A stretch of 64,000 nt of DNA from an uncultured Gemmataceae bacterium (GTDB taxonomy: Bacteria > Planctomycetota > Planctomycetia > Gemmatales > Gemmataceae), in contig CAVVPN010000003.1 of assembly GCA_963750165.1 (NCBI GenBank), positions 1,728,001 to 1,792,000 of the forward strand. The letters are read 5' to 3'. The position numbers and the translations under genes are program-made. Each line of letters starts with the position of its first letter. Within the stretch, counting starts at the first letter, position 1. Of the stretch, positions 18,390-33,102 are shown in pieces. The notes below the pieces were generated by a model, which had not been told where the DNA came from, did no database searches, and saw only the letters and a program-made list of their open reading frames with translations.

Positions 18390-18776
18390 TCAGCGCCCGT
18401 ACCAGTAACTCGGGGCCTGGTAGTAATAGCCAACGGGCCGCACGCCGGAGGGCGGCGCGGTCGGCGGCGCGGCGAAAGCCGGCGGCGGGTATTGCGGCGC
18501 ATACGCGCTGCTGGCCTGGGGCGCCGGCCAGTTCGGGAACTGGAAGCCGGTGGGCGACGGCACCGTGAAGTAGGCGTCGTAGGGGAAGTAGGTGTACCAG
18601 GGCGGCAGGTACGGTCGCGGGCCGGGGTAGGTGAGGTTGATGTAAGCCTTGATCCCAGCATCTACCTTGAACGGCGGGCAGAAGGGCAGTTGCAGTGGCG
18701 CGCCGTCGGCCGACGCCCGGGTGGGCAGTGCCAGCAGCGGCAGCCCCACCAGGGCCAGCCAGACCAGTCGTTTCAT
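18390..18776 (-). CDS. Small secreted Pro/Tyr-rich protein ending QAPSYWYGR
   Basis: Signal peptide MKRLVWLALVGLPLLALPTRASA; low-complexity mature region. Confidence 0.75.
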   Translation of the reverse strand: MKRLVWLALVGLPLLALPTRASADGAPLQLPFCPPFKVDAGIKAYINLTYPGPRPYLPPWYTYFPYDAYFTVPSPTGFQFPNWPAPQASSAYAPQYPPPAFAAPPTAPPSGVRPVGYYYQAPSYWYGR

Positions 18777-19027
18777 GGGGGTCGTCCTCGGGGTTCGCAC
18801 GATAGGAGCGGGAAGGCCGCCGGCGACCGCTCCAACGGTGCCGGCGCGTTTTGGCACACTCCACCATTGCCCGAGGAAGCCGCGACGGCCAGGGAAAACG
18901 GCCGCCTTACCGCGTCGCGACGGCGCCGCCACCGTCTCAGACGGTAGTAGTCGCGCAACCGGCGCGCGCAAACGGGCGTCCCGGGCAGGAACCCGGGACG
19001 CCGTGCGAGGCTTACTGGTATTGTGGT

Positions 19028-19630
19028 TTAGTAACCGTACCAGTAAGAGGGAACCTGCTGCCCGCCATACGAGTAGCCGTAGCCCTGGTAGTAGCCATAG
19101 CCCTGGTTATAGTTATAACCCTGGTTGTAGTTGTAACCCTGGTTGTAGTTGTACGGGTTCTGCTGTTCGTAGTTCTGCGTTGGGGCGTAGTAGCTCTGAC
19201 CCTGGTACTGGTAGACGGCCGGTTGGTAGCTGGAGTTGCCGTACCACGACATCTTGGGTTCCTCCTTCTTGCCGTTCGCGGGCACCTGCTGCGGCACCGG
19301 CGGCATGAAGGTCGGGGCCACGGTTCCCGGCACCGCGGGCGGCGGGTAGGCGCCGGCGACGGGGTAGCCGCCAGCGACGGGGTAGCCGCCGCCGCCGACG
19401 GGAGGAGGGGTGACGGTCCAGGCGTTGGCGTGCCAGCCCTGGGCCACGTCGGTCGGGTAGCCGGGCACCTGGCCGCCGCGGAACATGCCATAGAACGAAC
19501 TGTTGTTGGCGCCCTCGTAGGTCCAGCCCAGGCCGATGAACAGACTGCTCTTCGACCAGGCCGACGCCTGTTGCTGCGCCAGCAGCGCCACGCACAGGGC
19601 CGCCGCGCCCACAATCATAAACTTCTTCAC
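19028..19630 (-). CDS. Secreted Tyr/Gln/Asn/Gly-rich protein ending QVPSYWYGY
   Basis: GTG start with GAGAGGAG RBS; signal peptide MKKFMIVGAAALCVALLAQQQASA; hexapeptide tandem repeats. Confidence 0.8.
   Translation of the reverse strand: MKKFMIVGAAALCVALLAQQQASAWSKSSLFIGLGWTYEGANNSSFYGMFRGGQVPGYPTDVAQGWHANAWTVTPPPVGGGGYPVAGGYPVAGAYPPPAVPGTVAPTFMPPVPQQVPANGKKEEPKMSWYGNSSYQPAVYQYQGQSYYAPTQNYEQQNPYNYNQGYNYNQGYNYNQGYGYYQGYGYSYGGQQVPSYWYGY
19083..19154 (-). repeat. 18-bp coding tandem repeat x4 (YNYNQG x3, YGYYQG)
   Basis: ccctggtagtagccatag / ccctggttatagttataa / ccctggttgtagttgtaa / ccctggttgtagttgtac. Confidence 0.85.
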
Positions 19631-19962
19631 GGTCAAACTCCTCTCAATTAGGTTCCCGATCCGGCGACTACTCGCGTGTTGGTGAGAACCATCGTCACCG
19701 GGTTGTCTAATCTTTCCCCATGACAAACCCTGAGGCCAGGCAAAGGTGTACGGATTGGCGAAAAGATTCGGGCCGCGCGACGTTTTCCGCCGCAGGTCGT
19801 GCCAGGCCGGTGAAAATCTCGTGTTTGGCTCAAGTGGCCGCTTGCGTGCGGAAGGCGCGGCTGGCGCGGCTGGCAGATTGGACGGCTTTGTCGGCGCGAC
19901 CCGGAGAAGTGCTGTTGACGCGGCGACCCGACAGGTTTGCGCAGCTGCGCAGGGTTCACAAA

Positions 19963-20723: not shown

Positions 20724-20874
20724 CGATGCTCCTCCAGATGCTTCGCCGCCGCGGCCGTGAGCCCCCGTGGCCCCGGACGCGGCGCCGAGCCGATTGTATG
20801 GCCGGGGTTGCGGCGGAGCAACCGGCCTGGCGCGCCGCCAGGTTTGGAATGTGTAAAATTAATGATGAATTTTC

Positions 20875-20902
20875 TTGACCGCGGTCGCTAACTGAGTATA
20901 GT
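20875..20902 (+). promoter_or_regulatory. Putative sigma70 promoter
   Basis: TTGACC (20875-20880), 16-nt spacer, TATAGT (20897-20902), with an AT-rich UP-like tract upstream. Confidence 0.6.
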
Positions 20903-20904
20903 AG

Positions 20905-21466
20905 GAAGTGTTTTGGCAAGACTTCTCTCGCTGAGGCACCGTGCCTCACGTCCACCTTAATTCAGGTCGCCGCGGCGGTTGAACTCTCGTCTTCATCCCG
21001 ACCGGCGGCCGCATCACGGTGCGCCACGGACGTTTCGAGAGAAGGTTCCCAAACGCGAGCCTGCTTGCGCTCGGATCTCGGCTCATACGGTCTCAGGTGC
21101 CCGGCGTGTGTCGCCGTCAAGACCGGAATCTCCGGCGGACCCTGAGGATCCTAACGACGCTTTCCAACCCGAGCGCAAGTGACCGCGGGCTCTCTTACCA
21201 AGGAGGTGCACCGGTCGATACTCTAAACGAGAGGATTGGCGGAGCCCGTCGCTCGGTTGGATTTCGGCTGGGACGACCTTGAGGCGCTGTCCGGCGCCCG
21301 CGCTGGACCCCCCTCTGGTCCCTGGAGTCATTTGCCCGATCGCGACCCCATACGACGGGTTTCCGGCTGCGAAGATGTCCCCTCAAACTCTAGGGGAACG
21401 TCGAATTTGCATTTCCCACATGGGAACAGTAACCCGTTTTCCAGACGAAAACGGGTTGCTGTTTTA
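20905..21466 (+). ncRNA. Candidate large structured ncRNA or long 5' leader
   Basis: Bounded by a promoter and an intrinsic terminator; many hairpins and a nested long-range stem; no ORF with host-like codon usage or recognisable product. Confidence 0.45.
21428..21466 (+). terminator. Intrinsic terminator-like hairpin
   Basis: cagtaacccgtttt-ccagacg-aaaacgggttgctg followed by tttt. Confidence 0.65.
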
Positions 21467-21478
21467 TGAGACGCCCTT

Positions 21479-23703
21479 GTGAGCACTCCCCTACCGCTCG
21501 TGAACACCTCACACCGCCTCCGCAAAACTGTCGGCCTGCACCTCGGCGCCGCCACCGCCAGCATTGCGCTGCTCGACGCCACCGACAGCGCCCTCCGCTT
21601 CGGCCAGGACGACCAGGGCCGCCGCACGTTCCCGCTGACCGGCGACCCGGACTTGAAGCAGGTCGTGCAACAACTCCGCATCGCCCTGGCGCAGGTGCTC
21701 GACGACCGCCGCTACGTGCTGGACGCGGCCGTGTTGACCATGTCGGCGGCGCACGATCAGGACCGGCAAGCGCAGTTGAAACAACTCGTGCAGGAAGCCG
21801 GACTGGAAGTGGTCGCCACGATGCCCGAGCCCTTCACCACCCTGGTGTATTACCACTGGGCAAGCGGCCACGGGAACGCCCTGTATCTGGTTGCCTTCGT
21901 TGACCGCGGCCAGTGCAGCGCGACGGTCGCGGGCATTCTCCACGACGATCTTACGACCCCAATCGGATGGGAGAACTACAAGATTGAGGACGGTTCGGTG
22001 TCGGACCGTGTCGTCGACTGCTGCTGGCAAGCGCTGAACGACGTGAGCGTGTCGCCGGCCGCCATTGATTACGTTCTGCTGGCCGGGAGTTCCGACCAAC
22101 TGGCCGCGGTGGCCGCGGCGCTGCGGGCCGCCTTCTGCGACCCGGCGCTGCCGGAACACACCGTCCACCCCGAGCCGTTGGTACACGAGCCCGAGCTGTG
22201 CGCCACCGCCGGCGCGGCCATCCACGGCGCCCGCCTTGGCACCCACTACCTGCTCGGCGACAGCGGCGGCGCCACCGCGGACGTTCATCTGACCAGCCCG
22301 CCGAACACGCGCGTGACCGCCCACGAACTGACCGGCATCGTCAACGGTTCGCCGCCGCTACCGGCTGGCTCCTCGCTGCTGGTGCAGGCGCTGGCGACGG
22401 GCCTCGTGGAAGAAGCGTTTCTCGACGAACAGGGCGCCTTCCGCCAGGCGCTGGAGTTAACGCCCGACAGCGACAACGGTTTCCTGCTGACGCTGTGCGA
22501 CGACCTCGGCCGCGAGCTGGCGACGCTGCCGGCCACGGTCCGCCACAGCACGCAGGAGCGCCGCCTGGGCCAGACGGTTGCGGCCACCGAGGTGGTGACG
22601 CGGCCACTGCAAATTGAGGTGCTCGACCAGCGGCGGCGGCGCGTGCGGCAGACGCTGGCCCCGGTGGGCGCGACGCTGCCGAACACCTTCGCCTGCATCT
22701 GCCGCACCACCGACCAGGCCGGCCGCGTGGTCGTGCCGCTGTACGAGGACAACCGGTTGCTGCAGCGCGTGGTGGTCGGCGACCTGGACCCGACGCTGCC
22801 GGTCGGCGTACCGGTCGAACTTGAGTTGCAGGTGGACGCCGCCCATGCCCTGCGCCTCAAGGTGACCGTGCGCCACGCCGGCCGCATGGAAACCGTCACC
22901 CTGGCCGCGACGCCGCCGCCGAAACTGCCGACGAGCCAGGAAATCGACACCCTCCGCAAAGAAATCGAGACGGAGCTGACCCAGTTCACCGGCATCTTCC
23001 ACACGCGCAACCGCGAGCAGCTGACCCGCCTGCTCGGCGAGCTGGACGCAGCGCTGCAACGTCACGACGAGTCGGCGGCGCTGGAGCACGCCGCGGCACT
23101 GCGCGAGTTGCGTCAGGTGGTGCTGGGGGCGCGGTCGCAGGTGCTGGAGCCGCCCTGGCAGCGCTTCGCCCAGCTGGTCCGCCAGTGCCTGATTCAGGCG
23201 GGCAACGTCGCCGAGCGCACCGGCCGCTCACGCGAGGAACTGTTTGAACAGGTGTACGCCCAGGAACGCTACGCCGAGCAGGCGTACGCGGAGAAGAACC
23301 AGACGTTGTACCGCGAGTGCTTCGAGAACCTGAGCAAGTTCGCCGCGTACCTGGATCAGCTGGGCAACGACTTTTCACCCGGGGCGGCGGCGCGTGGGCG
23401 CGCAAGGTGCCGACGACGCTGGAGGTGCGCCGCGACGCCCGTCAGGTGACGCTGGAGTTGCAGGCACTGCTGCAGCGTGCGCAGGCGCAAGGACGGGCCG
23501 ATTTGAGCGAACAACTGGAGCAGATGTTGCGCATCGCGGCAAACGCGGACGACCGCGCCGCCCGCGACCCCGGCGGCGGCCAGCGCGACCTGGAACGGCT
23601 GCGCCAGGAGGCGGCACGGGTGGAGCAGGCGCTAACCGGCGTCCGGCTCAACACCCCGGATGACGACGAGGGAATGCTTGAAGGAACGGTTGAGGCGCGG
23701 TAG
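21479..23703 (+). CDS. Degenerate Hsp70-like protein (pseudo-ATPase) with Ig-like insert and helical tail; frameshift near 23395
   Basis: VGLHLGAATAS, MPEPFTTLVYY, YLVAFVDRGQCSATV and IDYVLLAGSS are decayed equivalents of GIDLGTT, NEPTAAA, DLGGGTFD and LVGGS. SBD-like GATLPNTF...VPLYED. Confidence 0.7.
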
Positions 23704-23723
23704 TTTGGGCTAGGGCGCCCCAT

Positions 23724-23776
23724 CAGCCCGAAGCGCAAGCGAGGGTTGCAGCAACCCTCGTTTGCGCTTCGGGCTG
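23724..23776. repeat. Palindromic repeat (AGCCCGAAGCGCAAGCG family)
   Basis: cagcccgaagcgcaagcgagggttgc-a-gcaaccctcgtttgcgcttcgggctg. Confidence 0.8.
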
Positions 23777-23808
23777 GTAGGGGTGTCGAGTCTCGATAAG
23801 GGTCACCG

Positions 23809-26496
23809 ATGAATGTCGCGTCCATACTGCTCTACGCTGCCCTGGGCGGGGCCGTGGTCCTGCTCGTGGGGGCCGCGGTGGCGCTCTGGTTGATCTTCGG
23901 CGCCGGGCCGCAGCGCAGCCGGGGCTACCGGCGCGGTCAGCGGCTGCTGCGCGAGGGCAACTGGCACGAGGCATTGCAAACCGTCCACACCTATCAGGTG
24001 CCCGGTCTGTCGCCACTGTGGCAAGGTCGGCTGCGGTCGCTGGAGGGCGAGTGCTACCGGGCCGCCGGCATCGCCGCCGTCAAGGGTCAGGACTACGAAA
24101 AGGGCCTCGACTATCATCTGCACGCCGCCGAGCTGCTGGCGCTCAACTCGGTCGAGGCGCGCGGCACCGTCATCGAGTCCATGCTGAGCGAGGTCCGCCG
24201 CCGCTTCGCCGCCGGCGACACCTCCGCCGCGCAGGCACTGGTGTCGCGCACGCTCCTGCTGCAATCGCCGTGCGCCGAGGCGTCGTTCTGGCAGGGCCTG
24301 TGTCACCTGCACGCCGGCAACGTCGAGTTGGCCCAGGCGGCGCTGCTGACGGCGCGCGGCGAGACGCCGACCCTGCTGGACCCGTCGCTGTACCTGGGCG
24401 GCACACTGCTGAAAGCGGGCCAGGCCAAGGAATCGCTGCGCTACCTGACCGAGGCCAACCGGCTCGACAGCAACTGCCCGCTGGTGGCGCTGTCGCTGGG
24501 CACGGCCATCATCACCGCTGGCGGCGACGTGCAGATCGCCAACCGCGCCCTGCAAAAAGCGCTGGGGCCGCGCGGCCTGCTGCAATACGCGGCGGCGCCG
24601 CAGCGGCTGTGGGCGGAGGGTTTTCCCGAGGGCCGCTCCTACGTCCGCCGGCTAGCGCAGAAGTACCCATTCACCGACCCGGTCTGGGGCGGCGACGTGA
24701 CCCAGATCATCCGCGACGGCAACGCGGCGCTGGCGCAGGGCCTGTACCGTCAGGGCAACTTCCAGGATGCAGCAGACCTGTACGGCCGGCTGCTACAGGA
24801 ATCGGCACCGACGGCGCCGGTGCTGCGCGGCCTCGGCCTGGCGCTGACGCGGCTGGAGCGCTATGACCAGGCGTTCAAGCACTTGAAGGCCGCCTACGAG
24901 ATCGAGCAGGGCCGTGAACGCTGGACCGCCGGTTACCTGGCCCTGTGTGGAGCGAAGGGCAAGCCGAGCCGGCCGGAGGACAAGGAGCGCAACGTCGCCT
25001 GGGCGGTGCGCGTTGTCTGCGCCTTCCAGGCCCCCGGCGATACGGAGTGGGCGAACCTCATCAGCCAGATCTTCGCCGAGGCCCGGCAGTGTGGCGTGGC
25101 GCTGCCGGTGGAGGATCAGCTGTACCTGTGCGATCACCTGGCGTCGGTAAGTGCCATCGACCCGCTGGCGGCGGAGGCGTACCACTGGCTGGCGGTGACT
25201 CACCCCGAGGCGCTGCGGTCGCAGCACGCCTGGCTCTACAGCCGGGCGGCGCACCAGCACGGCGTCAGCGGCCCGCGCGCCGCCGACCTGTTCGCGCGCA
25301 CCTTCGCCGAGCAGGACGAGGCACGCGTCTTCTACCGTCAACTTGGCTGGGACTTCGACGACCTGGAGTACGCCTTCCTGGAGCGCGCGGCAGCGACGCA
25401 CCCGGGGCAGTTCCCGGCAGTGCTCGGGCTGGACTATCCGCCGCGCGGCGAACAGAGTTTGCTGGAGCGGTCGCAGAGGCAGGAGCAGGCCGGTCAGAAG
25501 GAGCAGGCGCTGGCGACCGCGGAGGTGCTGGTGCGGCTGGCGCCCGGCAGCGGCCGCGCTCACGACCGCGTGGCCCAGATGTACCACCGCCTCGGCAAGT
25601 CCGAGAGCGCCCTGGCTCACCTGCATCAGTGGCGGCTGCTGGAGGCCAGCAATCCGCTGCCGCCGCTGCGTCTGGCGATCCTGAGTCAGAACCTCGGCCA
25701 GCAGGACGCCGCTCAGCAGAATCTCCGCCGGGCGCTGGCGTTGACCGACGGCACCCGCCGGGCGGACCTGGCGCTGCTCGGTGCACGGCTGGCGCTGCTG
25801 GCGGCAAAGGACCAGCTCGCCGGCGCGGCGCCGGCCTTGCAGACGGCGCTGGAACTGCTCGACATCTGTCTTCACGAGGACGAGCAGAACCCGCAGGCGC
25901 TGTGGCTGCTGGCGGCGGTGAAGGCGGTGCTCGGCGACCGCGACGGGCTGGCGCAACTGGCGCCGCGGATGAAGCGGCAGGACGTGGACGACCCGCGCTT
26001 CCAGTTCCTGGCGGCGGTGTGTTTGCTGGCGGCTGGCGACTACCCGGCGGTGCTGGAGGCGTGCGGCCGGGCGGCCCAGGACGCGGCGCTGGCGGTGGAG
26101 TGCTCGTACCTGGTCGGCTGGGCGCAGCTGTTGCGGCACGAGATCGCCGCGGCGACGGAGGCGTTCCGCGTCGTCGCCCGGGTCAAGGACAGCGCCTCGG
26201 CGGCGCACGCGCAGGCGCTGCTCGGGGCCATCCGCTTCCACGAGGGCGGTTACGAGGAGGCGATTCACTGGTGGCAGAGCCTGGACGCGGAGCGGCGTGC
26301 CGACTGGAAGTTCGCGGAGCCGTTGCAGGCGACGGTGTGGCTGGCGGCGCTGAAGGCGCTGCAGTCGGGGCGGTACGAGAACGCAGCGGAGCGGCTGCGC
26401 GAGGCGGGCAAGCTCGGCTGGCGCGACCGCCGGCTGGGGCCATTACTGAGCTTCGCGCTGGTCAAGGCGGGGCAGCAGTTGTTGTACCGGAAATGA
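23809..26496 (+). CDS. Large TPR-repeat protein with N-terminal membrane anchor
   Basis: N-terminal hydrophobic helix; repeated TPR-like helical units (LGLALTRLERYDQAFKHLKAA; LLGAIRFHEGGYEEAIHWW). Confidence 0.85.
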   Translation: MNVASILLYAALGGAVVLLVGAAVALWLIFGAGPQRSRGYRRGQRLLREGNWHEALQTVHTYQVPGLSPLWQGRLRSLEGECYRAAGIAAVKGQDYEKGLDYHLHAAELLALNSVEARGTVIESMLSEVRRRFAAGDTSAAQALVSRTLLLQSPCAEASFWQGLCHLHAGNVELAQAALLTARGETPTLLDPSLYLGGTLLKAGQAKESLRYLTEANRLDSNCPLVALSLGTAIITAGGDVQIANRALQKALGPRGLLQYAAAPQRLWAEGFPEGRSYVRRLAQKYPFTDPVWGGDVTQIIRDGNAALAQGLYRQGNFQDAADLYGRLLQESAPTAPVLRGLGLALTRLERYDQAFKHLKAAYEIEQGRERWTAGYLALCGAKGKPSRPEDKERNVAWAVRVVCAFQAPGDTEWANLISQIFAEARQCGVALPVEDQLYLCDHLASVSAIDPLAAEAYHWLAVTHPEALRSQHAWLYSRAAHQHGVSGPRAADLFARTFAEQDEARVFYRQLGWDFDDLEYAFLERAAATHPGQFPAVLGLDYPPRGEQSLLERSQRQEQAGQKEQALATAEVLVRLAPGSGRAHDRVAQMYHRLGKSESALAHLHQWRLLEASNPLPPLRLAILSQNLGQQDAAQQNLRRALALTDGTRRADLALLGARLALLAAKDQLAGAAPALQTALELLDICLHEDEQNPQALWLLAAVKAVLGDRDGLAQLAPRMKRQDVDDPRFQFLAAVCLLAAGDYPAVLEACGRAAQDAALAVECSYLVGWAQLLRHEIAAATEAFRVVARVKDSASAAHAQALLGAIRFHEGGYEEAIHWWQSLDAERRADWKFAEPLQATVWLAALKALQSGRYENAAERLREAGKLGWRDRRLGPLLSFALVKAGQQLLYRK

Positions 26497-26909
26497 GAGG
26501 GCCAGGAGGGGGTCCGTGGGGCAAAAATCCGACGCAGACGGGTGGACAGGGGCGAAGCCCTGTTGCCCGGGTCGGTACCGCCCGACCCGGCACCACGGAA
26601 GTCGCTTTAGCCGACCTCCATCCTCTGCACGCGGTGCCCCGGCCGGAAAAACCGGCAAACCATATTCCGGATCTGGCAAAGACCATCAGGGCGAACGGCT
26701 ATGATGTAGGAAGGGCCATTCTCGCGGCCCGGATGCCGGACGGACGGTTGGTGCAACTGGGGGGACATCATCGTGCGGAGGCCAGGCGACAACTCGGCGA
26801 GACGATTGTCCCCACCCGGGTCGTGGATTGGACCGCTCTGTCCCCAAAGATTCAGGCCTGGTGGCGTCAGCGGTTCCCGAATTTTCCTTGGGGAGATTTC
26901 CTGACATGA
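26493..26909 (+). CDS. Small ParB/sulfiredoxin-like domain protein (toxin-tip-like)
   Basis: ATGA overlap with the upstream stop; LADLHPLH...LAKTIRANGYD...GRLVQLGGHHRAEARRQLG...VPTRVV matches the ParB-N/Srx GHHR signature. Confidence 0.65.
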   Translation: MRGPGGGPWGKNPTQTGGQGRSPVARVGTARPGTTEVALADLHPLHAVPRPEKPANHIPDLAKTIRANGYDVGRAILAARMPDGRLVQLGGHHRAEARRQLGETIVPTRVVDWTALSPKIQAWWRQRFPNFPWGDFLT

Positions 26910-27235
26910 GTTCCGAGGCCCGACCCTGGTTCTCCGTCAGCCGGCCGGGGAGTTCCGTGTTGCGTTGCGCCGCGTGCCGCCAGGAGTTCGACCTCGGGGG
27001 GTCGGTCGCCGACCACCACCCAGCCGTGTGCCCGGTGTGTGGCGTCGAATGTATATTCGTTGACTGGAAGGATCGGATCGTTCAGGTCGTCACGGCCTCC
27101 GCCCCCGCACGGCTGCCCGAATTGATCCGCTGGCTGCAGAACAACTTCGACGAACTAGACTACGTGCAGTTGCTCTGTGCCCTGGAAGAACTAGCCGACG
27201 CCGTGGACTCCAGCCGCGAACCCCAGGTGCGATGA
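26906..27235 (+). CDS. Small Zn-ribbon protein (CAAC...CPVC), candidate immunity/partner protein
   Basis: ATGA overlaps at both ends; two CxxC pairs; acidic helical C-terminus. Confidence 0.65.
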   Translation: MSSEARPWFSVSRPGSSVLRCAACRQEFDLGGSVADHHPAVCPVCGVECIFVDWKDRIVQVVTASAPARLPELIRWLQNNFDELDYVQLLCALEELADAVDSSREPQVR

Positions 27236-28929
27236 AGGATACCGCGATGGCGATTCCCGAAGCGATTCCGATGGCGGCGCCCGCCGCGGCACCGCCGACC
27301 GCCCCCCGGGCCGAGCCCTGGGCCGACGCCGCGCGCCTGTTCGAACAGGCCCTCAAGACCGGACCTGCGGACCCACAGGTCGCGTACCTGCTCGCGCTGT
27401 GCTACAAGCGCCAGGGCAAGACCAACGACGCTCGCACTGCTCTGCGCAAGATCAGCAAGCCGGACGCCAACGTCCTCCTCCAGATGGGGCTGCTGTCCTT
27501 CCAGGAGAACAATTTCGCGCAGGCCGAGCAGGAATTCGCCCGCGCCCTGGAGATGGACCCGAACTCCTACGAGACCTGCTTCAATCTATTCCTGGCCCGG
27601 CTGTCGCTCGGCAAGATGGAACCCGTGCTGGCGCTGCTGCCCAAGCTCGGCGCCCTGGCCAGCGACCCCGACGAGCAGCGCTTCTTGCGCGTCACCGAGC
27701 CGCTGTTCCGCGACTGCATGAACCCGCGTTCCGGGCCGCCGCCGTTGCCCAAAAAGCAGGCCAACGGCGTCCTCGTCTATGACACGCTCATCCCGGAGAT
27801 GACTGCCGGCGATGAGGAGCGCTTCCTGCAGATCATCCGCAGCGTCAGCGACTTTGAGGTGATGTTCCCGCTGCTGCGCGGCCTGGCGACGGGCCGGCCG
27901 AACAGCCAGGCGGTGCAGGAGACGTTCCTGGAAGCGGTGCTGGTGCGCGGCAAACAGCTGGCCGACCACTGCGACTGGGACGAGGCCCGCCAGTTGCTGC
28001 AACCGCTGGCCCGGCTGCCGTTCGATCCCACCCGGGCGTCGCAGGAGGCGTGCGAGAACCACATCGCCATGCTCAACCTGCTCGGCTGTTGTGAGTGCAT
28101 GATGCAGGAGTTCGACGCCGGCATCCGCTACTTCCAGACCGCCCTGCGTATGGCCGGCAACGACGCCTGGCTGCACCAGAATTTGGCCCTGGCCTTCGAG
28201 TACCAGGGTCGCCTCGACCAGGCCGACACGCACTGGAACCGCTACTTCGATCTGCTCGACCGCAAGGTGCCGGTGCCGTCGCTGACCAATTACCTGGAGA
28301 CGCTGGCCTACGAGGGGCTGAACCGTTTGGCCGACACGTATCAGAAGAAGGAAAAGTGGAACAGCGCCCTGACATACCTGCAGCGCGCCCATCGGCTGCG
28401 GCCGGCGGACACCGAGACGCTGGAACGGCTGTTTCACCTGTATAATCAAGTGAAGCGGCCCGAGGACGCCCGGCGGACGCTGCGGCGGTTGCGCGAGATG
28501 CGGCCCAACGACCCGCAGTTCGAGTTGTACGAACTCGATTTGCGCGAGGTCAAGACGCTGGAAGACCTGGACCGCAAGCTGGCCGACATCCGCAAAACGC
28601 TGTCGCGCTATCCCAACGACGCCCGCGTTGAGGAGCGGGCCGTCAACATGGTCGGCGAGGTCATCCCGCTCATGGGCCGCCTGTGCGACCAGTTGACCGA
28701 CGAACTGAGCCGGGTCATCGACCAGGTGCGCAGCCTGCCGAACTACCAGATCAACTGGCCGGCGGTGCGCGACGTGATGCGCGACCTGCAGGAGCGCTTC
28801 CAGAAACTGCGGCGGATCACCAACAAATGCCTGGGACTGGTCACCAATGAGGAGCACCGCCGCATCATCCGCGACCTGAGCGACCACATTGACCGGAAGA
28901 TTGAGATGTGCCAGTCGATGGGGGCGTGA
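27232..28929 (+). CDS. TPR-repeat protein with C-terminal helical bundle
   Basis: TPR units (VLLQMGLLSFQENNFAQAEQEFARALEMDP; LHQNLALAFEYQGRLDQA); strong host codon usage. Confidence 0.88.
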   Translation: MKDTAMAIPEAIPMAAPAAAPPTAPRAEPWADAARLFEQALKTGPADPQVAYLLALCYKRQGKTNDARTALRKISKPDANVLLQMGLLSFQENNFAQAEQEFARALEMDPNSYETCFNLFLARLSLGKMEPVLALLPKLGALASDPDEQRFLRVTEPLFRDCMNPRSGPPPLPKKQANGVLVYDTLIPEMTAGDEERFLQIIRSVSDFEVMFPLLRGLATGRPNSQAVQETFLEAVLVRGKQLADHCDWDEARQLLQPLARLPFDPTRASQEACENHIAMLNLLGCCECMMQEFDAGIRYFQTALRMAGNDAWLHQNLALAFEYQGRLDQADTHWNRYFDLLDRKVPVPSLTNYLETLAYEGLNRLADTYQKKEKWNSALTYLQRAHRLRPADTETLERLFHLYNQVKRPEDARRTLRRLREMRPNDPQFELYELDLREVKTLEDLDRKLADIRKTLSRYPNDARVEERAVNMVGEVIPLMGRLCDQLTDELSRVIDQVRSLPNYQINWPAVRDVMRDLQERFQKLRRITNKCLGLVTNEEHRRIIRDLSDHIDRKIEMCQSMGA

Positions 28930-28975
28930 CCATAACTCCTCTCCCCCCTGAAGGGGCGAGGGGAGGAAGACGGAG

Positions 28976-29485
28976 ATGACCATGAGCAAGATTCCAACCG
29001 GGCCGGTGGTGCTGGAGCTGGCGCCGATGCCGCGCGAGCAGATCGGTCCGTTCCTGTTGCTTGGCCTGGACAAGACCGCGGACAAGACCGCCATCGACGC
29101 CAACTGGGCGCAGCGCATCAAGTGGGCCCGGCGCAATCAGCTCAAGGCACCGCTGGAGGACATCAACTGGGCGCGCGACATTGTCAGCGACCTGGACAAG
29201 CGCATCCGTGCGGACGCCGCCAGCTTCAACATTGACACCACCGAGGGCGTCCTGCGCCGCCTGTCCGAGCGCTATGAAAGCAGCCAGCACACGGCCACCT
29301 GCCGGCCGCTCGATGTCGAAAAGAACCTGGCCGACTATACTCCCCCTGCGGAACTGCCCGACCTCGCCGAGGCCCGCGCCGCCGTCATGGTGCCGGAGGT
29401 GCCGCAGGAGACGCCGGCGGTCGCGCACCTGCTGGAACAGTTTCTCCGCGAACCGCTGGACCCGTGGCAGGTCCACTTGTCCTGA
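28976..29485 (+). CDS. J-domain-like protein lacking the HPD motif
   Basis: PFLLLGLDKTADKTAIDANWAQRIK...LEDINWARDIVSDLDKR mirrors J-domain helices I-III; context next to grpE and Hsp70. Confidence 0.55.
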   Translation: MTMSKIPTGPVVLELAPMPREQIGPFLLLGLDKTADKTAIDANWAQRIKWARRNQLKAPLEDINWARDIVSDLDKRIRADAASFNIDTTEGVLRRLSERYESSQHTATCRPLDVEKNLADYTPPAELPDLAEARAAVMVPEVPQETPAVAHLLEQFLREPLDPWQVHLS

Positions 29486-29496
29486 GGAACGTCCGC

Positions 29497-30105
29497 ATGA
29501 ATGACGAATTGTTGCCGACCGCCCCGCGCTCCACCGCGCCTGCCGAAGAGGCCACGCTGGGCATGTCGGCGCTGTACAAATTGTTCGAGGCCTTCATCGC
29601 CCTGCGCGAGAAGAACGAACGCCAGCACAAGCTGTTTGAGCAGACGCTGACCAAGGCGCGCGACGCCATCCAGTCCAGCTTCAACAGCTTTGCCGCCGAC
29701 ACCCAGCGCGCCTACCAGCAGTTGCGCCAGGAGGTCCACGGCGAGAAGCGCGTCAGCGTTGCCCTGCTCAACGAATTGCTGGAACTGGGCTTCGACCTGG
29801 AGCACATCGTGGCGGCACGGCCGGTGCTGATGCTGACCGGCGCTGAGGCCGAGGCCATGAACCGCTGGGCGGACGGCATCGAGGTCGAGTGCCGCAAGGT
29901 GCAGGACGCCCTGCGCAAGCACGGCATCCTGCCGTACGACGCGGTGATCGGCGCGGTGTACGAGCCAGCCCTGCACGAGCGCGTCGGGGCCAAACGCGTC
30001 GAGGGCATGGACGCGCTGCGCGTCGCCGCACAGGTGCAGCACGGTTACGCCAGCAAGCAGCCAGAGTTCGTGCTGCGGCGGCCGAAAGTGATTGTGACGG
30101 AGTGA
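29497..30105 (+). CDS. grpE: GrpE-like nucleotide exchange factor
   Basis: N-terminal coiled coil, then LRKHGILPY..IGAVYEPALHE...QHGY...VLRRPKVIV. Confidence 0.85.
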   Translation: MNDELLPTAPRSTAPAEEATLGMSALYKLFEAFIALREKNERQHKLFEQTLTKARDAIQSSFNSFAADTQRAYQQLRQEVHGEKRVSVALLNELLELGFDLEHIVAARPVLMLTGAEAEAMNRWADGIEVECRKVQDALRKHGILPYDAVIGAVYEPALHERVGAKRVEGMDALRVAAQVQHGYASKQPEFVLRRPKVIVTE

Positions 30106-30123
30106 AATGAAGGTCTTTAGCCC

Positions 30124-30163
30124 GATTGATCGATTCGCGCTCGCCAGCGCGAATCGATCAATC
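30124..30163. repeat. Intergenic hairpin between grpE and the Hsp70 gene
   Basis: gattgatcgattcgcgct-cgcc-agcgcgaatcgatcaatc. Confidence 0.7.
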
Positions 30164-30197
30164 AATGCAATAAAACTGGCACCCAGGATACCCCCCA

Positions 30198-31934
30198 ATG
30201 GCGTACATCGGCATCGATTTCGGCACCAGTAATTCCGTCGTGGCCAACTTCCAGTTCGGCCACGCGGAGGTCATCCCCAACAAGGAAGGGCACAAGTGGA
30301 CGCCCTCCGTCGTGACGCTGCGCCGCGACGGCAGCCTCGCGTTCGGTCAGGAGGCCAAGGAAAATTTCGACGAGCAGCGCTCCATCCGCAGCATCAAGCG
30401 CATCCTCGGCACGCCGGAGCGTGTGCCGCTGGTCGGCCAGAACCTGCGCACCGAGCAGATCGCCGTCATGCTCTTCAGCCTGCTCAAGCGCGACGCCGAG
30501 CAGCAGTTGAACGAAACCATTAGCAAGGCGGTCGTGACCATCCCGGCCAACTCGAAGGGCCTGGCCCGGCACGCGACCAAGCTCTGCGCCGGCGCCGCCG
30601 GCATGCAGGTACTCACGCTCATCAATGAGCCGACCGCCGCGGCCATCTGTTATGGCCTGAACGCGCAGGAAGATCAAACGGTCCTGGTCTACGACTTCGG
30701 CGGCGGCACCCTTGATGTGACGATCCTGCGCATCCACCACGGCCTGTTTGAAGAGATCAGCAGCAAGGGTATCGGCAAACTTGGCGGCGACGATCTCGAC
30801 CTGGCGCTGGCCAACGTCGTCGCCCGCCGCTTCCAGGACAAGACCGGCTATGACATCATGAACTCGCCGCACCGGCAGCAGTTCATGCTCGCGGTCGAGA
30901 AGGCGAAGATCGAACTGTCGAGCCAGCAGGCGACGGTGGTGCGCAAGGCCAGCTTGGTGCCGGAGCGCAATTTGAACCTCGAAGAGGAAATCGACCGCGC
31001 CACCTTCGAGCGCGAGATCATGCCGCTGGTGGTCAAGTCCGGCACCGCCATCGACGAGGCGCTGAAGTTGCGCGGCTTCCGACCCAAGGACATCGACAAG
31101 GTGCTGCTCGTCGGCGGCACCTCGAAAATCCCGCTCATCAAGCGGTTCGTCACCGAGCGCATGGCCGGCAAGGAGCCGGAGTCGTTCGAGAAGGTCGATC
31201 CGATGACCTGCGTCGCTCAGGGGGCGGCCATCGTCTCGGCCATTCTGCAGGGCGCCCCCGGCCTGGACAACCACGCTTACAGCGTCAAACTGGAGCACTC
31301 GCTGTGCGCCAATCCGATCAACGAACGCCGGCAGGTGTACCTCGACCCGATCGTCAAGCGCGGCAGCGACATCCCGTGCTCGTTCACCAAGACGTACCAT
31401 CCCGTGGCGGACCCGGCCGAGCGCGTGGTCATCTGCGTCTACGAGGGCGACCTGTACGACAACCCGGAGAGTCCGGAGAACGTCAAGTTGGCGGAGATTC
31501 CGTGGGAGTTCCAGCCGCCGCGGCCGCAGCGCGACGGTGCCCTGGAGGTCACGTTCGAGTACGGCGATGACGGCATTTTGACGGTGCAGATCACCGACCT
31601 GCACGCTGGCCACAAGAAGCGCTTCGCCATCCAGCAGAGCGGCCAGGATCAGATGGACGCGACGCAGATCATGAAGATGAAGCGCATCAACGAGGACCTG
31701 CTCAAGCGCGGCAACGAACTGGAGACCTCGCAGGAGTACCGCGACGCGCTGGAGGTGCTCAAAAAGACCGAGCAGGACGTGATCCCCAAGGTAGAGAGCC
31801 CCAGCGACAAACGCGAACTGGAGGAACTGTGCCGGCAGGTGCGCGAGGCGATGGGCGCCGGCGACAAGAAGCGCATGGAGGACGCCAGCGCCGCCCTGAA
31901 CGACCGCCTCCTGAATTACGCGTATTTGCTGTGA
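30198..31934 (+). CDS. Hsp70 family protein (non-canonical DnaK/HscC-like paralogue)
   Basis: GIDFGTSNS, TPSVV, INEPTAAA, DFGGGTLD, LGGDDLD, EKAKIELS, LVGGTSKIP, VYEG. Lacks the DVLLLD linker of true DnaK. Confidence 0.93.
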   Translation: MAYIGIDFGTSNSVVANFQFGHAEVIPNKEGHKWTPSVVTLRRDGSLAFGQEAKENFDEQRSIRSIKRILGTPERVPLVGQNLRTEQIAVMLFSLLKRDAEQQLNETISKAVVTIPANSKGLARHATKLCAGAAGMQVLTLINEPTAAAICYGLNAQEDQTVLVYDFGGGTLDVTILRIHHGLFEEISSKGIGKLGGDDLDLALANVVARRFQDKTGYDIMNSPHRQQFMLAVEKAKIELSSQQATVVRKASLVPERNLNLEEEIDRATFEREIMPLVVKSGTAIDEALKLRGFRPKDIDKVLLVGGTSKIPLIKRFVTERMAGKEPESFEKVDPMTCVAQGAAIVSAILQGAPGLDNHAYSVKLEHSLCANPINERRQVYLDPIVKRGSDIPCSFTKTYHPVADPAERVVICVYEGDLYDNPESPENVKLAEIPWEFQPPRPQRDGALEVTFEYGDDGILTVQITDLHAGHKKRFAIQQSGQDQMDATQIMKMKRINEDLLKRGNELETSQEYRDALEVLKKTEQDVIPKVESPSDKRELEELCRQVREAMGAGDKKRMEDASAALNDRLLNYAYLL

Positions 31935-32019
31935 CCGCTTCTCTGCGGCTTGCCGCTTAGCGGGCTAGCGCTAAGCGGCAAGCCGCAGAGACTCAGACCC
32001 GCTGCCGGGAGCCCCGACG

Positions 32020-32511
32020 ATGCCGAACTGTCCGATGTGTACCAAGCCGCTGGCGGAGCTGACGCGGCGCTGCCCGACGTGCATGGCCGACCTGGACCTG
32101 CTGGTCGATTACGTGCAGCACCTGGGCGTCGGCCTGGAGAAGGCGGAGCAGTTCACGCGCGCCGGCGAACTGGGCCAGGCGATGTGGGCGTATCTGGAAG
32201 TGCTGGAGGTCGATCCGGACAACGGGCCGGCACGGCGGCAGGTGGGCCAGGTGGCGACGGCGGTGCGGCAGTTCGATCGCACCGCCGCGGGGCGGCGCTG
32301 GCTCAACCGTGTTCGCGGCATCAACGACGACGACGAGAGCGGGTTGTTCGGTTGGCTGCGGACGGTGTTCGTGCTGCTGGCGGTGCTGACGGCGTTCGCG
32401 CTGGGCTACGGCTGGGGCACCGACTGGGGCGAACGTCCCGGCACTGGTGACACGCCGCCGGTCAAGCCCGCGCCGCCCGCCGACCACAAAAAGACGCTCA
32501 GCGGCCATTAA
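32020..32511 (+). CDS. Zn-ribbon (CPMC...CPTC) + TPR-like helix + TM protein
   Basis: Two CxxC pairs; YLEVLEVDPDN; hydrophobic helix near the C-terminus. Confidence 0.75.
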   Translation: MPNCPMCTKPLAELTRRCPTCMADLDLLVDYVQHLGVGLEKAEQFTRAGELGQAMWAYLEVLEVDPDNGPARRQVGQVATAVRQFDRTAAGRRWLNRVRGINDDDESGLFGWLRTVFVLLAVLTAFALGYGWGTDWGERPGTGDTPPVKPAPPADHKKTLSGH

Positions 32512-32544
32512 CCTCCCCGCGCCAACGCCCCGGAGGAACCGTTC

Positions 32545-33102
32545 ATGACGGGACGCTCCTGGCTCATCCCCGTGCTGTTCGTGCTGGCGGCGTGCGGTTG
32601 CCTGGCGGGCGCGGCCAGCGGCCAGGGCGCCGACAAGAAAATGCGCGAAATCGCCGTGCGGGAACTGACCGCCGCGGAGGACCGGTTGAAGAAAACGGAG
32701 CGGCTCGCCCAGCAGCGCGCCGCGGATGAAAAAGACCTCATCCTCGCCCGCTATCAAGTCCTCGACGCCCGCTATCAACTGGCGCAGCTCGACCAGGAGC
32801 CGCAGAAAAAGCAGATCGACCTCATGCGGCAGATGGTCCGCGTCTACCACGACTATTACATCCTCATGGGCAAACTGGAGGGCAAGGGCCGGGTAGCTCG
32901 CGTCGATGTGGACGGCGCCCGCCTGGGACTGGCCGAGGCGCAGATTCGACTGGAAACGCACGTCATCATCGACATCTACGAGCGCCAGGTGGAGCGGTTG
33001 CAGAAGTTGCTCGCGCAGAAGGCGGCCACGGCGAACCAGCTGGAGGACGCTCGGAAAATGCTGGAATCCGCCCGCCGCCGGCTGGCGGATTTGCCGCGCT
33101 GA
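32545..33102 (+). CDS. Secreted coiled-coil hypothetical protein
   Basis: GAGG RBS, signal peptide, repeated amphipathic helices. Confidence 0.7.
   Translation: MTGRSWLIPVLFVLAACGCLAGAASGQGADKKMREIAVRELTAAEDRLKKTERLAQQRAADEKDLILARYQVLDARYQLAQLDQEPQKKQIDLMRQMVRVYHDYYILMGKLEGKGRVARVDVDGARLGLAEAQIRLETHVIIDIYERQVERLQKLLAQKAATANQLEDARKMLESARRRLADLPR

Follow-up and report, generated by a model that had tools for sequence, protein, structure and literature searches.

A conserved six-gene Hsp70, GrpE and J-fold module with predicted membrane anchors in Gemmataceae

A cluster of ten genes, here called g1 to g10, occupies positions 21479..33102 of a 64,000-nucleotide stretch from an uncultured Gemmataceae bacterium (GenBank assembly GCA_963750165.1, contig CAVVPN010000003.1, positions 1,728,001 to 1,792,000). 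We refer to this whole stretch as the window and use its numbering unless stated otherwise. The cluster encodes an Hsp70, a GrpE, a J-fold protein, several tetratricopeptide repeat (TPR) proteins and a second, degenerate Hsp70. As a sequence-only reading of the window had described, the genes are co-oriented and tightly packed: all ten open reading frames (ORFs) are found on the + strand, with gaps of 33-105 nt or with 4-nt overlaps (g2/g3, g3/g4 and g4/g5). Pfam and NCBIfam scans identify Hsp70 in g8 (E 3e-97), GrpE in g7 (E 5e-11) and TPRs in g2 and g5, give weak matches to an Hsp70 remnant in g1 and to Zn-ribbons in g4 and g9, and return no convincing match for g3, g6 and g10. The same reading had proposed a self-contained, membrane-tethered Hsp70 machine with TPR partners. 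What stands of that proposal is a self-contained, non-housekeeping chaperone set with predicted anchors and TPR partners; the ten-gene unit does not, three of the genes being passengers.

The conserved core consists of six genes, g2, g5, g6, g7, g8 and g9, whose order recurs far beyond chance. The first, g2 (23809..26496), encodes an 895-aa protein with Pfam TPRs, whose N-terminus is a predicted membrane anchor with basic residues behind it. The 565-aa TPR protein g5 (27232..28929) ends in a conserved helical bundle according to its structural model. The 169-aa product of g6 (28976..29485) adopts a J fold by model, fold search and DnaJ alignment, with ARR or ARK where the HPD motif would be. 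A divergent GrpE scoring above the Pfam cut-off is encoded by g7 (29464..30105), whose start more likely lies at 29497 because most homologs align from residue 12. The Hsp70 g8 (30198..31934; 578 aa) retains its ATPase site, whereas the residues for allostery and J contact are rewired; its lid is short and it has no tail, as judged from a residue audit of 45 orthologs. Finally g9 (32020..32511), which travels with g8, combines a Zn-ribbon and a single TPR with a transmembrane helix predicted from hydropathy. The G+C content at third codon positions (GC3) of the core genes is 0.88-0.91, matching the host.

We assessed conservation in 151 genomes of the window's family, 88 of them well assembled. 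Orthologs of g5 occur in 74 of the 151 genomes, those of g8 in 69 and both in 64 (well-assembled subset: g5 in 35, g8 in 34), and g8 is almost always single-copy. Gene order was read from 40 g5-centred loci, taken from 73 genomes for long contigs and identity spread, and from 36 g8-centred loci, each count being limited to loci long enough to show the neighbour. Upstream of g5 lies g2 in 36/40 loci; g6 follows g5 in 32/40, g7 follows g6 in 29/31, g8 follows g7 in 16/27 and g9 follows g8 in 14/16 and 22/31, while g1 precedes g2 in 12/33. The module often comes in two blocks, g2-g5-g6-g7 and g8-g9, with g7 directly upstream of g8 in only 10/30 of the g8-centred loci. Fusion of g2 and g5 into one ORF of 1310-1459 aa is seen in 6/40 loci. 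The expectation that the gene order would be conserved is borne out for the six core genes and not for g3, g4 and g10, which are present in 0/76 related loci. No recurrent neighbour at a fixed position was found beyond the module genes; WD40 proteins near the module (12/52 loci) were rejected as components, their position, strand and length being variable. Five loci (L255 and L258-L261, in genomes G051, G024, G100, G130 and G084) hold divergent copies whose match to g5 is confined to its N-terminal part and stops near residue 355; in L255 the matching part sits after g9.

The Hsp70 of this core is set apart from the housekeeping chaperones. Canonical dnaK, dnaJ and grpE genes are present in the host genome outside the cluster, which agrees with the earlier remark that the cluster holds no true DnaJ. 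In a tree of 27 sequences built on the N-terminal 420 residues, g8 forms a clade of its own (100/100) apart from E. coli DnaK and host DnaK, a placement outside DnaK that the sequence-only reading had left to phylogeny. Deeper affinities are unsettled in this tree, where the single HscC included, that of E. coli, is a long branch at an unsettled fork and g8 a separate clade. Against the NCBIfam DnaK model g8 scores 337 bits with a cut-off of 648; it is ~30-35% identical to DnaK-type proteins and lacks the DnaK tail.

The residue audit of the 45 g8 orthologs (DnaK numbering), together with a linker motif scan of 120 close relatives, separates what g8 has kept from what it has lost. Residues D8, T11, K70, E171, D194, T199 and K270 are invariant in 45/45 orthologs, the peptide pocket is largely kept (V436, I438, V440 and L484, with F426 replaced by Y), and P143, R151, K155, D393 and D481 are also retained. 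By contrast, YFND (145-148) has become NSKG in 45/45 orthologs and 120/120 close relatives, R167 is replaced by T in 44/45 and Q378 by V in 45/45; D148 is G within NSKG, D326 is L, R or F, and E206 is R, K or H. The linker residues V389-L391 are missing and L392-D393 kept, and an [VIL]LLLD linker motif occurs in 0/120 close relatives, so the reported loss of the DVLLLD linker is real, only LD being left. The available text of a review (Mayer 2021, PMC8215388) describes H33 of the HPD motif as touching L391 and D35 as touching R167 and Q378; it gives D481-R167 and K414-D326 as the clamps between the nucleotide-binding domain (NBD) and the substrate-binding domain (SBD), and D148 as relaying the substrate signal.

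The J-like partner lacks the other half of this contact. The model of g6 has a mean predicted local distance difference test (pLDDT) score of 79 and a J-domain match over residues 13-84. A VIA fold search gives a best Z of 9.1 (root-mean-square deviation 2.5, 62 residues aligned), and its top 24 rows are titled as J-domain proteins or are entries that we take to hold them. Foldseek agrees with the J fold, but at E > 0.001, and the VIA matches include the Tim14-Tim16 complex (Z 5.9). While g6 itself has no Pfam match, 14/31 members of its family weakly match DnaJ. HPD is present in 0/31 g6 sequences, the window protein having ARR at that position of the DnaJ alignment, which upholds the description of g6 as an HPD-less J-like gene. 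No hydrophobic segment was found in g6, and its residues W44, R52 and W65 are conserved. According to the available text of PMC13580251, HPD is present in some 99% of J-domains, which depend on it to trigger Hsp70. An HPD-less g6 linked to a g8 without the HPD-binding residues makes a private chaperone machine likely, and we infer that the two losses are coupled. The changes in g6 and g8 amount to one shared event in one lineage, with no independent repeats.

The same substitutions could also mean that g8 is an ATP-gated scaffold or holdase that is not J-activated, with g6 as a non-stimulating or inhibitory J-like adaptor of the kind represented by Pam16/Tim16. The universal change of YFND to NSKG and the loss of the clamp residues D326 and R167 would suit such a protein, as would Tim14-Tim16 among the g6 fold matches. 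Linker-modified DnaK derivatives have moreover been proposed to have lost J and substrate activation (PMC13580251, available text). Yet g8 has kept its peptide pocket as well as P143, K70, R151, K155, D393, D481 and L484, and a dedicated GrpE stands beside g6 in 29/31 loci, which argues for a nucleotide cycle worth accelerating. We consider the scaffold explanation quite doubtful.

Two core proteins carry putative membrane anchors. A hydrophobic N-terminal segment is present in 29/31 g2 orthologs, in most cases with GPRR-like basic residues next to it on the C-terminal side, and a hydrophobic segment follows the Zn-ribbon/TPR part in 34/35 g9 orthologs. By the positive-inside rule basic residues flank the cytoplasmic side of a membrane segment, so the TPRs of g2 would be cytoplasmic. 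The C-terminus of g5 is modelled as a four-helix bundle (pLDDT 90) with a conserved LPNYQINW loop. It has no distinctive fold match: Foldseek returns nothing at E < 0.001, and VIA returns generic bundles, headed by STAT2 (Z 13.7), with BAG structures at ranks 3, 7 and 10 (Z 12.3, 11.9 and 11.5) amid unrelated bundles. Nor does BAG figure among the 25 Pfam families listed for this bundle, and we dropped a BAG assignment since the conserved residues lie in the loop linking the first long helix to the second, away from what we take to be the BAG binding face. A complex prediction of g8 with residues 1-100 of g9 scored 0.00, which speaks neither for nor against binding.

Among the genomes searched, the module was found only in its own family, where it is largely inherited with its hosts. 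The g6 profile finds 0/400 genomes from other families of the phylum, and the g5 C-terminal profile finds 0/15 genomes of the order's other family. Searched against 50% representatives, the g9 profile gives 64 matches with E up to 1e-30, generic TPR proteins being among the weaker ones. Where close relatives of g8 carry a name, it is Gemmataceae or Planctomycetota; by title, 36 records comprise 30 from Gemmataceae, Gemmatales, Planctomycetota or Planctomycetia, 2 from Singulisphaera and 4 nominally from Alcaligenaceae. We mapped presence on a DnaK tree of 90 genomes (55 carriers and 35 non-carriers, drawn from 125 with a DnaK match). The distribution takes 9 changes, compared with ~28 for shuffled labels, and one 21-genome clade is without the module. 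Such a distribution is what an old module lost several times would leave, and some of the apparent losses may be assembly gaps. Mean pairwise identity across 44 genomes is 78.0% for g8 and 76.4% for DnaK, and 14/18 strong splits of the DnaK tree are recovered in the g8 tree (13/18 in reverse). The pattern is that of a resident cellular function and not of a fast-moving defence island.

A full J/GrpE/Hsp70 set that evolves slowly and conserves its peptide pocket might be thought a general stress back-up for DnaK, that is, a second heat-shock chaperone set. Such a role sits poorly with an Hsp70 only ~30-35% identical to DnaK types, without the DnaK tail and J contacts, and not found in 82/151 family genomes. 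The window also holds no CIRCE-like site (controlling inverted repeat of chaperone expression). We regard the back-up role as very improbable.

A second operon in this genome has a related layout, TPR (806 aa)-J-GrpE-Hsp70-Zn/TPR (C4:1217172-1223082; L107:6173-12083). Its Hsp70 is found in 96/151 family genomes and in 1/150 from other families (G282, with the same layout). The order TPR-J-GrpE-Hsp70-Zn/TPR recurs on the Nostoc plasmid NZ_CP151103.1 and, without the fifth gene, on the Acaryochloris plasmid NZ_CP064921.1; in the plasmid search the Hsp70s are all below 60% identity and, among the 40 matches listed, at 30-35%. The Zn/TPR and J genes of this class are related to g9 and g6 (HHalign probability 87% and 59%), and its J protein is also without HPD (SPE or PAH at that position; SPE in this genome). 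Its Hsp70, unlike g8, has retained YFND-like residues as well as Q378 and a hydrophobic linker. The small Zn/TPR gene of the class shows no transmembrane tail such as g9 has, and its TPR protein cannot be aligned to g5. The Hsp70 tree leaves a sisterhood of the g8 and second-operon groups unsettled. Because the second operon keeps Q378 and the linker and has no anchor tail, the window module appears as its more rewired, membrane-anchored relative.

With this class in hand, a role in conflict can be weighed. The sequence-only reading had raised anti-invader signalling. In a system of this kind, TPRs would sense an invader protein and the Hsp70 would set the threshold of an effector. The closest precedent is the GAP1-N2 DO-GTPase HSP70/GrpE theme (Kaur et al. 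2020, PMC7159879), whose neighbourhoods, in the available text, likewise unite HSP70 with GrpE, DnaJ/TPR fusions and an optional second HSP70, predicted to work close to the membrane. The sister layout lies near transposases and an integrase on the Nostoc and Acaryochloris plasmids, the module has been lost several times, and a toxin cassette is inserted in the window copy, all of which favour conflict. The theme as set out there requires a GTPase, GAP1 and FNIII, however, and none of these, nor tubulin, vWA or a variable effector, recurs in the 52 flanking module loci. GAP1-M was not found in this genome, which is 93% complete (a single GAP1 family was searched), and PADLOC 2.0 (2023 library) gave only two weak TPR-type matches (E 4e-4 and 2e-3). 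The toxin cassette is in 0/76 other loci; g8 equals DnaK in degree of conservation and follows the DnaK tree, with host-like GC3. The theme is described mainly from actinobacteria and firmicutes, whereas our module evolves slowly and vertically, and g1, unlike the second HSP70 of the theme, has retained an SBD-like part (PMC7159879, available text). Slow, vertical evolution and the lack of a noteworthy PADLOC match weaken the anti-invader role, which we now hold to be unlikely.

A further comparison is with dedicated Hsp70/J systems of the cell. The E. coli HscC locus runs ybeQ-ybeR-djlB-ybeT-ybeU-djlC-hscC, and, as here, the Hsp70 has its own J partner, with Sel1-repeat genes in the same locus. 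HscC resembles g8 as a specialised short Hsp70 (550-580 aa compared with 578); in both, NBD lobe I has a deletion and the first SBD loop an insertion (PMC8215388, available text). DjlC, unlike g6, keeps HP at the HPD position (HPE), and HscC, unlike g8, keeps R167 and Q378. HscC is described, in the text available, as not using GrpE, whereas the module has a linked GrpE in g7; and the J partner of the HscC/DjlBC system is a large membrane protein, whereas g6 is small, with no hydrophobic segment, and the predicted anchors are on the TPR proteins. With DnaK-DnaJ-GrpE the module has in common the same three kinds of component and the invariant catalytic NBD residues; it differs in lacking HPD and the VLL linker, in the replacement of R167, Q378, D148 and D326, and in its separate clade. 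We place the module among the dedicated Hsp70/J systems. Full-text searches, with most subscription journals outside their coverage, returned no description of it, in keeping with the earlier impression that it matches no described system.

Taken together, these data lead us to read the module as a dedicated membrane Hsp70 machine, independent of housekeeping DnaK/DnaJ and serving a narrow client, a reading to which we assign a probability of roughly 55%. The six-gene machine is predicted to sit at the inner membrane, on its cytoplasmic side. There g2 and g5, one protein in some genomes, would together make up a membrane-held TPR scaffold for presenting the client. The J-fold protein g6 would dock on g8 through a co-evolved private surface, insulating the pair from DnaJ and DnaK, while g7 would catalyse nucleotide exchange on g8 and g9 might provide a second membrane anchor or an adaptor for g8. 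In the window g1, with ATP binding lost, could serve as scaffold only. By analogy with HscC/DjlC, for which a review (available in part) suggests membrane proteins as clients, the job would most likely be the assembly or disassembly of one membrane-associated protein complex.

Several observations pull against a dedicated membrane machine. The g8-g9 block often lies apart from g2-g5-g6-g7 in the genome, so that joint action of the two blocks is not a given. Flanking genes differ among loci and none is a linked client gene, which makes the proposed job a guess by analogy. The membrane anchors come from a single kind of evidence, a hydropathy scan. The altered allosteric residues could mean that g8 is no longer a client-remodelling chaperone. 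The register of the linker alignment is ambiguous (by eye, a second register is possible), with the hydrophobic VLL gone in both. One strong conflict separates the g8 and DnaK trees, involving a genome with two DnaK copies (G072). Finally, the cyanobacterial plasmid copies of the second-operon class adjoin mobile elements, which fits a conflict role for that class.

A more far-reaching version of the dedicated machine can be put forward only tentatively. Here g6 and g8 would be a natural orthogonal J/Hsp70 pair in which the HPD trigger has been replaced by a co-evolved interface; the pair would drive a membrane-tethered remodelling machine ancestral to the family, and the module would be the most rewired branch of a widespread TPR-J-GrpE-Hsp70-Zn/TPR class. 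A whole lineage has lost HPD and two Hsp70 contacts together while its Hsp70 has stayed as conserved as DnaK. The module is thus a test of J-activation by other chemistry and of how a specialised Hsp70 is insulated from DnaK. Its presence also points towards a membrane process, as yet uncharacterised, in a family of bacteria known for their unusual cell biology, and to an operon class spanning at least planctomycetes and cyanobacteria.

Upstream of the core, g1 (21479..23703, +) encodes an accessory second Hsp70 with a degenerate NBD, a beta-rich insert, an SBD-like part and a helical tail. Depending on the query, orthologs turn up in 25 or in 30 of the 151 genomes; they are 830-950 aa long with the beta-rich insert after the NBD. 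Seven of nine g1-family sequences aligned from loci are catalytically intact and two degenerate, and EPTAAA and DxGGGTxD are kept in 73/73 full-length database homologs, a search that may favour intact forms. Compared with its intact nearest ortholog (G012), the window g1 has three in-frame NBD deletions and has lost the ATP motifs. In-frame deletions, host-like GC3 and the family's C-terminal LEG motif, which g1 keeps, give it the look of a maintained pseudo-enzyme and not of a dead gene; a related contig spans the first deletion, which is hence common to a relative. We conclude from these alignments that g1 is an optional second Hsp70 whose degenerate state here appears to be an exception in a family usually intact. 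The proposed design of one active and one inactive Hsp70, with g1 in at most 30/151 genomes, does not hold.

A frameshift near 23390-23405 cuts g1 (ORFs 21479-23449 and 23317-23703), and the gene resumes in another frame to 23703. At this site another related contig shows a net 5-nt difference that joins both frames, and frame changes occur in 5/53 tested genes of the assembly; the frameshift is probably an assembly error or very recent. The housekeeping dnaK is also frameshifted in the assembly (L110:8078-10023; G000:C11, ~438-440 kb), as are two other Hsp70 genes. A long Hsp70 with a g1-type beta-rich insert, 28% identical over 629 columns, is encoded elsewhere in the genome (L108:8179-12333; G000:C3, ~650-655 kb), preceded by a 427-aa gene without a Pfam match.

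Between g2 and g5 lies a two-gene cassette (26493-27235), with a 4-nt overlap at each of the three junctions from g2 through to g5. The GC3 of g3 is 0.63 and that of g4 0.79, compared with 0.88-0.91 in the core. The product of g3 (26493..26909, +) has ParB_N look-alikes and is 66-77% identical to the C-termini of five longer proteins, four with PT-HINT and one of these also with RHS repeats. We take g3 to be an inserted orphan ParB-fold polymorphic-toxin tip and g4 (26906..27235, +), a small protein with a weak Zn-ribbon match, its likely immunity gene, a role read from position. Tox-ParB tips associated with HINT and RHS are listed by Zhang et al. 2012 (PMC3482391, available text). Like g3 they are ParB-fold tips, elsewhere found after HINT and RHS domains; g3, unlike them, is an orphan tip without a delivery domain, and g4 is unmatched to the immunity families listed there (Imm20, Imm27 and Imm-SuFu). 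Loci L078, L089 and L096 have 1.6-2.0 kb gaps between g2 and g5, the same junction as that of the cassette, which may tolerate insertions. At the downstream end, g10 (32545..33102, +) encodes a predicted secreted coiled-coil protein with only unnamed look-alikes; absent from the 76 loci, it is a passenger.

The remaining observations concern the surroundings. The window contains no Rfam family, and a scan for promoters and terminators was at chance level (2 compared with 0.9 expected, and 5 compared with 8.9). About 750 bp upstream of g1 (20724-21478) hold no convincing gene and no Rfam match, with a sigma-70-like site at 20875-20902. Elsewhere in the genome (L110:15207-19307; G000:C11, ~445-449 kb) a gene string forms a possible prokaryotic ubiquitin-like cluster, its members being, as we presume by eye, ThiF/E1-type, E2-like and JAB-like. 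On the - strand of the window, at 18390-19726, two adjoining genes, one of which was scanned and gave no Pfam match, encode predicted secreted proteins rich in Pro, Tyr, Gly and Gln that end in a near-identical motif (PSYWYG).

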